A stretch of 8,612 nucleotides of DNA from a virus (IMGVR_UViG_3300014522_000024), one strand, 5' to 3'. Positions 7,705 to 7,960 are shown, counted from the stretch's first letter. Numbers and translations are program-made. The notes: generated from the letters alone by a model not told the origin.

Positions 7705-7755
7705 TTGCAAAGTTTGCCCTCAATATGCCCCATTTAGTACCAGAGAACTGAAATA

Positions 7756-7809
7756 ATGCAAGAAAATCAACAAATTACAAAGAAAGAACAATACAACCTG
7801 AACAAGTAA
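7756..7809 (+). other. Phage-borne surrogate 5' end of ttcA (17 codons then TAA), presumed to contain the integration core
   Basis: Translation MQENQQITKKEQYNLNK equals the N-terminus I recall for K-12 TtcA, which there continues LQKRL... Here TAA follows codon 17 and the downstream sequence is unrelated to a tRNA-thiolation enzyme. Confidence 0.55.
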
Positions 7810-7910
7810 GGGCAAAAATCACAACTATCTGACCCATAAGTATTTTATTTATTTTTCAATATGTTAAACATTATCGGCAACTACAATAAGCCACGATAAC
7901 CCACTCTTTT

Positions 7911-7960
7911 TTTTGCCCCATTTTTGCCCCTTTTGCAGTGTTTTGCCCCATTTTTGCCAC
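7911..7960 (+). repeat. Phased direct-repeat array: five ~10-bp units (TTTTGCCCCA / TTTTTGCCCC / TTTTGCAGTG / TTTTGCCCCA / TTTTTGCCAC)
   Basis: A 20-bp unit TTTTGCCCCATTTTTGCCCC (7911-7930) is repeated at 7941-7960 with 19/20 identity. Sub-units recur at 10-bp, helical-phase spacing. Confidence 0.7.

Follow-up and report, generated by a model that had tools for sequence, protein, structure and literature searches.

What recognizes the short GCCCC-containing repeats that lie on both sides of the attachment core of a Rac-like phage? The DNA that raises this question is a viral stretch of 8,612 nucleotides (IMGVR_UViG_3300014522_000024; its full length is called the window below), in which the integrase gene intR is followed by a phage-borne 5′ end of the host gene ttcA containing the recombination core. 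RecET recombineering derives from Rac, which also serves as a model cryptic prophage. A preliminary description of the window, made from the sequence alone, had taken the repeats for candidate arm-type sites of the integrase IntR or the excisionase XisR and for intrinsically bent DNA. Our results favor the integrase. IntR possesses a full arm-binding domain, the repeats are laid out asymmetrically on both arms as in phage lambda, their position, strand and 11-bp pairing are conserved, and they are absent from DNA of the bacterial attachment site (attB) type. On these grounds we consider it probable (roughly 80%) that IntR binds the TTG(C/T)CCC(A) repeats as arm-type sites through its N-terminal arm-binding domain and, jointly with this, that positions 7713-7960 represent a complete lambda-style phage attachment site (attP) of a Rac-type phage integrating into ttcA.

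The most conspicuous repeats form an array on the arm distal to intR. As described earlier, a 20-bp unit occurs twice, at 7911-7930 (TTTTGCCCCATTTTTGCCCC) and 7941-7960 (TTTTGCCCCATTTTTGCCAC), with starts 30 bp apart and 19 of 20 positions identical. The whole of 7911-7960 can be divided into five 10-bp units (TTTTGCCCCA, TTTTTGCCCC, TTTTGCAGTG, TTTTGCCCCA and TTTTTGCCAC), whose G positions (7915, 7926, 7935, 7945 and 7956) are spaced by 11, 9, 10 and 11 bp. Tandem Repeats Finder delimits the array as 7910-7958. Exact TTTTGCCCC is found four times in the 8.6-kb window, and three of these copies fall within a stretch of 40 bp in the array. With one mismatch allowed, the window-wide count (seven observed against 3.2 expected) is reached in 7 of 200 shuffles and is thus unremarkable, so that the signal lies in the clustering. 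An exact inverted TTTTGCCCC is also present within intR (6679-6687, minus strand, codons 70-73) and is kept in 48 of 53 near-identical intR genes. It is absent from relatives at 65-70% identity, and we rejected it as a site; it is probably coincidental.

The array acquires its meaning from comparison with related phages. Loci fetched through the integrase protein mostly stop at the int stop codon and include no arm; we used instead a scan of IMG/VR for degenerate ttcA core codons, adding the loci of K-12, O157, RM10740, SPF_0923 and PHB10. The resulting 46 distinct long arms fall into nine classes at 80% identity, and all identities given here are class-weighted and relative to the window. Every one of the 46 arms has TG[CT]CCC between +85 and +185 from the core, 44 of them in three to four copies, and all these copies are on the plus strand and none on the minus strand; the background in 1.17 Mb of fetched loci is 0.6 per kb for both strands. 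Units 1, 2, 4 and 5 have identities of 0.79-0.98 (listed individually in Table 1), compared with 0.56 at other arm positions and 0.32 past 7960. Unit 3 scores only 0.48 and in other arm classes reads GCGGCC, ACGGCC, TATTCCGCA, AAGCCG or GAGGCG. Judged by conservation, then, the array consists of two pairs of sites (spacing within a pair, 11 bp) flanking a non-conserved spacer, rather than five equivalent units: all five sub-units noticed before are present, but their equivalence does not hold. The two pairs are located about 107-150 bp past the core, with pair A at about +105 to +120 from the core end across the 46 arms. Both K-12 Rac (ynaM/ynaE cargo) and a phage carrying sitABCD lose homology to the window within a few bp of 7960, which fits this position being the outer edge of attP; in the nleC and ykgJ cargo types, homology to the window continues further out. 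Natural variants of the array occur in IMG/VR as well: L106 and L126 have only one pair, as recombination between the two 20-bp units would leave, and L169 lacks unit 2.

A second, smaller group of repeats lies on the other side of the core. The copies previously noted between intR and the ttcA-like ATG are indeed present, TTTGCCC at 7713-7719 and TGCCCCATTT at 7726-7735, with their G positions 11 bp apart. Since TGCCCC occurs 11 times in the window, these copies are not significant on their own. However, in about 35 distinct phage-type ttcA short arms the pair occupies the same columns directly past the int stop codon, whereas native ttcA upstream DNA (attR/attB type) has no G[CT]CCC at the corresponding positions in any sequence; it is this combination that makes the pair significant. 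The ttcA coding sequence 3′ of the core has no G[CT]CCC either. Thus, across Rac-like att regions, TTG(C/T)CCC(A) is kept at fixed positions and on one strand in 46 long and about 35 short arms, and conservation of the repeats in homologous attachment regions, on which the earlier proposal depended, is borne out. In K-12 and most Rac prophages the short-arm pair is TTTGCCCCcaatTTGCCCC; the window has a weaker version, TTTGCCCTcaatATGCCCC, in which two substitutions (TTTGCCCT, ATGCCCC) distinguish it from the TTTGCCCC/TTTGCCCC of K-12 (L181, reverse strand 209-231) and most Rac prophages. The same variant is present in four IMG/VR loci, and it may be bound more weakly by the integrase.

The protein encoded next to these sites has the domain that such a role calls for. 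Residues 5-69 of IntR match Arm-DNA-bind_2 (PF12167) over the full profile length (Pfam, E = 3e-26), and the catalytic domain, Phage_integrase (PF00589, E = 2.8e-23), follows. A sequence search of the PDB gave matches to the catalytic domain alone. PF12167, also known as DUF3596, defines the IntBPP-1 subgroup of integrases, which includes those of Bordetella BPP-1, an Stx2a (Shiga toxin) phage and Gifsy-2 (PMC8138268); in that work its members are termed putative integrases and no DNA sites are defined. IntR shares the domain, and Stx phages and Bordetella BMP-1 show the same arm-site layout as the window, but neither the arm motif nor the layout found here appears in PMC8138268 or in the other literature searched.

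The arrangement of sites can be set against that of the best-known heterobivalent system. Lambda attP has arm-type sites P1 and P2 on the P arm and P′1-P′3 on the P′ arm, together with sites H1, H2 and H′ for integration host factor (IHF). In the window, one pair lies 60-80 bp from the core centre on the int side, and two pairs with a spacer of about 10 bp lie 120-165 bp away on the other side; all six candidate sites have the same orientation, and conserved IHF-like sequences are found between arm sites and core. Measured from the core centre, the short arm, which adjoins int, is about 80 bp in length and the long arm about 168 bp, a total of about 248 bp. The likeness to lambda attP noted from the distribution of repeats therefore extends to size, asymmetry and position of int: both systems have a heterobivalent integrase with an N-terminal arm-binding domain, an attP of about 240-250 bp with a short arm by int and a long int-distal arm, neighbouring arm sites about one helical turn apart, and a motif that is unrelated to the core and absent from attB; the window also has IHF-consensus sequences, as candidate sites, between arms and core. 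In the window the motif, as TTGYCCC, is found at 7713-7732 and 7911-7960 around the core at 7780-7805, and it is likewise unrelated to the core and present on both arms in the relatives examined except L086. There are also clear differences. The Rac-type arm domain is PF12167, while that of lambda is PF09003; the Rac-type motif is TTGYCCCA; the Rac-type sites, candidates from sequence, come in strict 11-bp pairs, two plus four, in one orientation; and the Rac-type core is inside the 5′ coding end of ttcA. A closer neighbour in terms of host is KplE1 (CPS-53)/HK620, for which IntS arm-type sites and TorI sites have been mapped on attL and attR (PMC2951348). It too is an E. coli cryptic-prophage recombination module with integrase arm-type and excisionase sites, but the IntS arm motif is TAAA rather than GCCCC, int is oriented such that its promoter overlaps attL, and the excisionase belongs to another family.

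The same layout persists in distant relatives, chosen as genomes with an intact or reconstructable attP, even though their integrases are only 26-69% identical to IntR, their cores differ and their spacers cannot be aligned. In PHB10 (integrase 69% identical) a pair follows the int stop codon and the long arm has three copies of TTTGCCCCTA plus GTGCCC. The wrbA-type phage phi367 (44%) has GTGCCCCAgacGTGCCCCAAA on the int side and four TGCCCCAAA-type sites on the long arm. The first pair lies within the int 3′ end in Yersinia 29.18 (43%), where a second pair is present, in Klebsiella phage 2 (42%), in which the short-arm pair only was found and the long arm was not captured, and in Stx1_14040 (40%), with a second pair about 125 bp past the annotated core. 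Bordetella BMP-1 (26%) has TTTGCCCCAAAttcGTCCCAAA on the int side and TTTGTCCCAAGATTTGTCCCAAG past a tRNA-type core, and the phiCTX-like Pseudomonas phage BR319a (32-34%) has a GTTCCCA pair, 11 bp apart, on either side. All of these integrases contain PF12167, and in those below 50% overall identity this domain is 45-49% identical to that of IntR, compared with 31-44% for the rest of the protein. In the Stx-type, Yersinia, Klebsiella and Bordetella phages the short-arm pair falls inside the integrase reading frame (L009 3738-3762; int 3′ ends of L010, L011 and L012; L179 395-420), where it encodes the C-terminal tail, e.g. VPxMPH/Q, so that candidate sites overlap coding sequence.

Several other elements accompany the arm sites (Table 1). 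Between the short-arm pair and the core, one of the two perfect WATCAANNNNTTR matches of the window falls at 7765-7777, inside the ttcA′ coding sequence; the native attB side, i.e. the ttcA 5′ end, also has an IHF consensus match, AATCAAGAAATTA. Between the core and the long-arm pairs, the IHF-like sequence at 7854-7866 retains its consensus positions (TTCAA..TTA) at an identity of 0.95 across the nine arm classes, compared with 0.52 at the NNNN positions, and its TTTTCAATATGTTA element recurs in phi367 (L009 3883-3899). The window-wide number of IHF consensus matches is not above chance, and both sites are sequence matches. The CnAC repeats that abut the array are also picked up by Tandem Repeats Finder, as a period-10 repeat at 7886-7904. 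We dropped them as candidate XisR sites because they are included in a DNA fragment, AttM, that XisR does not shift (see below).

The T-tracts of the array (T4-T8) have a mean spacing of 10.25 bp. Static curvature, as anticipated from their phasing, is indeed predicted: in both the Bolshoy-Trifonov and the De Santis dinucleotide wedge models the highest value of the 8.6-kb window falls at 7940-7943, at 24.4 and 21.0 degrees per turn, respectively, compared with a window median of about 6 and with 28.3 and 22.8 for an in-phase A5N5 control, absolute values being approximate. Of 10 ttcA-type arms tested, 7 reach similarly high predicted values, but curvature is ordinary in two other classes and in those distant relatives in which the motif is retained. 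Curvature thus looks like a frequent accompaniment of T-rich site flanks in these models and not like a conserved property or requirement.

A number of observations weigh against assigning the sites to IntR. The first short-arm site of the window is degenerate (TTTGCCCT). The single-sequence model of the IntR N-domain (strand-strand-strand-helix) is weak, with a predicted local distance difference test score (pLDDT) of 54, and a fold search with it was uninformative. The arms have common ancestry, so that arm counts are not independent events. One relative with a 70%-identical integrase, L086 (IMGVR_UViG_3300011712_000059, 3700-4818), has no TGCCCC pair within 1 kb downstream of the gene; the integrase of this exception to the layout is mosaic, its N-domain being PHB10-like and its C-terminal end different. 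In the literature searched we found neither direct binding data nor mutational evidence that IntR acts at these sites, and no paper defining arm sites for IntR or for the 933W-type, phiCTX or BPP-1 integrases. Finally, integrase and DUF1233 excisionase co-occur in all enterobacterial examples, and covariation alone cannot separate them. Our attempt to tell the two apart by protein family failed for this reason: DUF1233 is found by int in all enterobacterial relatives and weakly in BMP-1, and only BR319a lacks it.

Could the repeats, then, serve something other than IntR? They might be recognized by another phage or host factor, such as a regulator of cargo genes or a replication protein acting on iterons, or might be a functionless low-complexity repeat made by slippage. 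The copy-number variants mentioned above (L106/L126 with one pair, L169 without unit 2) do show that the repeats recombine or slip. However, the array is kept beside such unrelated cargo as ompT, ynaM/ynaE, sitABCD, nleC and ykgJ, its distance to the att core is fixed, the motif has a counterpart at the int stop codon, and it is conserved across phages of different genera with different cores. As to iterons, the array is surrounded by int, the att core and variable cargo, and there is no replication gene nearby. We therefore regard an origin or role of this kind as quite unlikely.

A more specific candidate is XisR, whose role as an excisionase has been demonstrated (PMC4632033). XisR might coat the phased tandem repeats on the long arm and bend it toward excision in the manner of lambda Xis; phased tandem direct repeats are typical of excisionase sites, as for lambda Xis, P2 Cox and Gifsy-1 Xis (PMC2603039), although the latter is described as AlpA-like and not DUF1233. 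Every enterobacterial relative has a DUF1233 excisionase along with the integrase, and a K-12 attR fragment that contains the array is shifted by XisR. Yet the same experiments speak against the idea. In electrophoretic mobility shift assays, a 294-bp fragment, AttR, is reported to be shifted by XisR, but a 291-bp fragment, AttM, is not (Liu et al., PMC4632033). We mapped the published primers onto K-12 and found that AttM starts at the first base past the core, includes the IHF-like site, the CnAC repeats and the complete set of four long-arm sites, and ends about 120 bp further on, whereas AttR comprises the same long arm, the core and 98 bp of native ttcA upstream DNA. As AttM bears the array and remains unshifted, the array alone is insufficient for XisR binding under the conditions used. 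Moreover, the motif is also present on the short arm across the core, unlike excisionase sites, which occur on one arm; BR319a has paired repeats and no DUF1233 homolog anywhere in its (partial) record; and excisionases are only 27-33% identical between phages with an identical TGCCCCA motif. It is thus highly improbable that the repeats are XisR sites, and of the two proteins originally suggested, the sequence evidence favors IntR. On K-12 attR (L004, reverse strand 1419-1833) the determinant that XisR binding requires lies within the 26-bp core, within the 98-bp stretch of native ttcA upstream DNA or across the core-arm junction; a determinant outside the long arm is unusual for a lambda-like excisionase.

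We give similarly little credence to a purely structural array, i.e. curved DNA that helps to fold attP or draws nucleoid proteins such as H-NS or Fis, with GCCCC not recognized as a specific sequence. Predicted curvature does peak at the array in both wedge models, whose absolute values are approximate, and is also high in most ttcA-type arms tested. But GCCCC is conserved while T-tracts and flanks vary, the motif is retained at ordinary predicted curvature (12-19 degrees per turn) in two ttcA-type arm classes and in the distant relatives, and the short-arm pair has only two sites, yet its position is fixed.

If the repeats are IntR arm-type sites, as we prefer to think, the analogy with lambda Int suggests how they might be used. 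Each IntR protomer would bind an arm site with its N-domain and a core site with its C-terminal domains. IHF-induced bends would fold the arms back, and a tetramer would bridge arms and core and exchange strands within the 26-bp ttcA core. The 11-bp pairing would allow two N-domains to sit next to each other on the same helical face, and the two long-arm pairs might be used differently in integration and excision, like lambda P1 and P2. Intrinsic curvature of the array may aid wrapping.

The near-copy in inverted orientation beside the core does not seem to belong to this set of sites. It had been reported as lying directly after the ttcA-like stop, and GGGCAAAAAT is indeed found there (7810-7819, opposite strand, 8/9 match). 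Its conservation is at background, however, and the position reads GAGTAAAAAC in L005 and GGGTAAAAAT in L006, both O157 relatives; we therefore rejected it as an arm site.

Table 1. Features of the window and of its candidate attP. Positions are counted from the first nucleotide of the window; identities are class-weighted.
Feature	Position	Strand	Basis or remark
recE, followed by recT	2318-4918		gene in window
xisR (ydaQ), excisionase gene, DUF1233 family	6252-6467	+	Pfam PF06806, E = 8.9e-21; relatives annotate xisR
intR, 411-aa tyrosine integrase	6469-7704	+	Pfam; 99% identical to Rac-SA53 IntR
Short-arm candidate arm site 1, TTTGCCCT, degenerate copy	7713-7720	+	fixed position in phage-type short arms; varies more than site 2
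Short-arm candidate arm site 2, ATGCCCCA, 11 bp past site 1	7725-7732	+	TGCCCC retained here by almost every phage-type ttcA short arm
Phage-borne ttcA 5′ end, 17 codons (MQENQQITKKEQYNLNK, then stop)	7757-7810	+	PMC4632033; comparison
Perfect IHF consensus AATCAACAAATTA, candidate short-arm-side bend	7765-7777	+	consensus match only
26-bp common core of attP and attB (AAGAAAGAACAATACAACCTGAACAA)	7780-7805	.	attP annotation in KU052037 (phage Rac-SA53)
Inverted near-copy (AGGGCAAAAAT) adjoining core, probably no arm site	7809-7819	-	identity 0.53 vs 0.56 background
IHF-like site TTTCAAtatgTTA, A/T tract upstream, candidate bend from core to long-arm sites	7854-7866	+	one mismatch to consensus
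Three CnAC repeats phased at 10 bp (CTACaataag, CCACgataac, CCACtc)	7881-7904	+	identity 0.85, nine classes
Long-arm pair A, units 1 and 2 (TTTTGCCCCA, TTTTTGCCCC), candidate IntR arm sites, G positions 11 bp apart	7911-7930	+	identity 0.83, 0.79
Unit 3 (TTTTGCAGTG), non-conserved spacer	7931-7940	+	identity 0.48
Long-arm pair B, units 4 and 5 (TTTTGCCCCA, TTTTTGCCAC), candidate IntR arm sites	7941-7960	+	identity 0.98, 0.85

The genes and the core that frame the candidate attP had been called correctly: IntR has 411 residues, xisR lies upstream of it, ttcA′ has 17 codons, and the core is the att of Rac-SA53. Upon integration, the phage-borne 5′ end replaces that of host ttcA (PMC4632033). Identity between phage and host in comparisons with K-12 attR and attL stops exactly at 7780 and 7805, and the crossover is somewhere within these 26 bp. 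About 780 bp of non-coding DNA follow the ttcA′ 5′ end, and an ompT-like gene starts at 8596. Promoter, terminator and Rfam scans of 7500-8612 gave nothing relevant, the array having no Rfam match, and no annotated coding sequence overlaps the array in relatives.

The window as a contiguous stretch is found in none of the complete E. coli genomes. In strains of the avian pathogenic E. coli (APEC) O1 type, its left part (to 7805) and right part (7650-8612) are about 50 kb apart, at 99-99.8% identity, which indicates that the window is an attP-type junction of a Rac-like phage of about 50 kb carrying ompT and cdt. The junction is either from the circular form or from a tandem. APEC O1-type strains also have a remnant junction (NC_008563.1, L001, 11825-12962) consisting of a 231-bp int fragment, short arm, core, long arm and ompT, which suggests an earlier Rac-type insertion at ttcA, tandem or remnant. 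ON032529.1, named 'Salmonella phage SPF_0923' (L003), contains a chromosomal nifJ fragment, ompN and uspF, followed by the native ttcA 5′ end, core, long arm and sitABCD; the presence of host genes identifies it as a prophage record with a host flank. Its att region is 91% identical to the E. coli counterpart.

What does this mean for Rac and its relatives? The locus is a previously unmapped example of a well-known element, and its mechanism, textbook lambda, will not surprise a specialist. Nevertheless, the relatives of Rac include Stx-converting phages and phages with cdt, ompT and sitABCD, and integrase arm sites were defined for none of them in the literature we found. The motif and layout fix the limits of attP (about 7713-7960), which is useful for designing minimal integration vectors and predicting prophage ends, and the motif helps to judge which remnants can still excise. 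The most interesting lead is an arm code common to the IntBPP-1 subgroup and independent of core specificity. That TTGYCCCA in 11-bp pairs represents the arm code of this whole PF12167 subgroup, whatever the core, is a tentative idea which we regard as less likely than not. Its scope would span Rac, 933W-type Stx phages, Yersinia and Klebsiella phages, and Bordetella BPP-1-like phages. If it were true, arm recognition would be interchangeable among co-resident prophages, such that the integrase of one phage could assemble on the arms of another. Hybrid attP junctions like that of the window would be allowed, integrase-less remnants retaining their arms would be mobilisable in trans, and cross-talk or interference between Stx and Rac-type prophages in enterohaemorrhagic E. 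coli (EHEC) would be possible.
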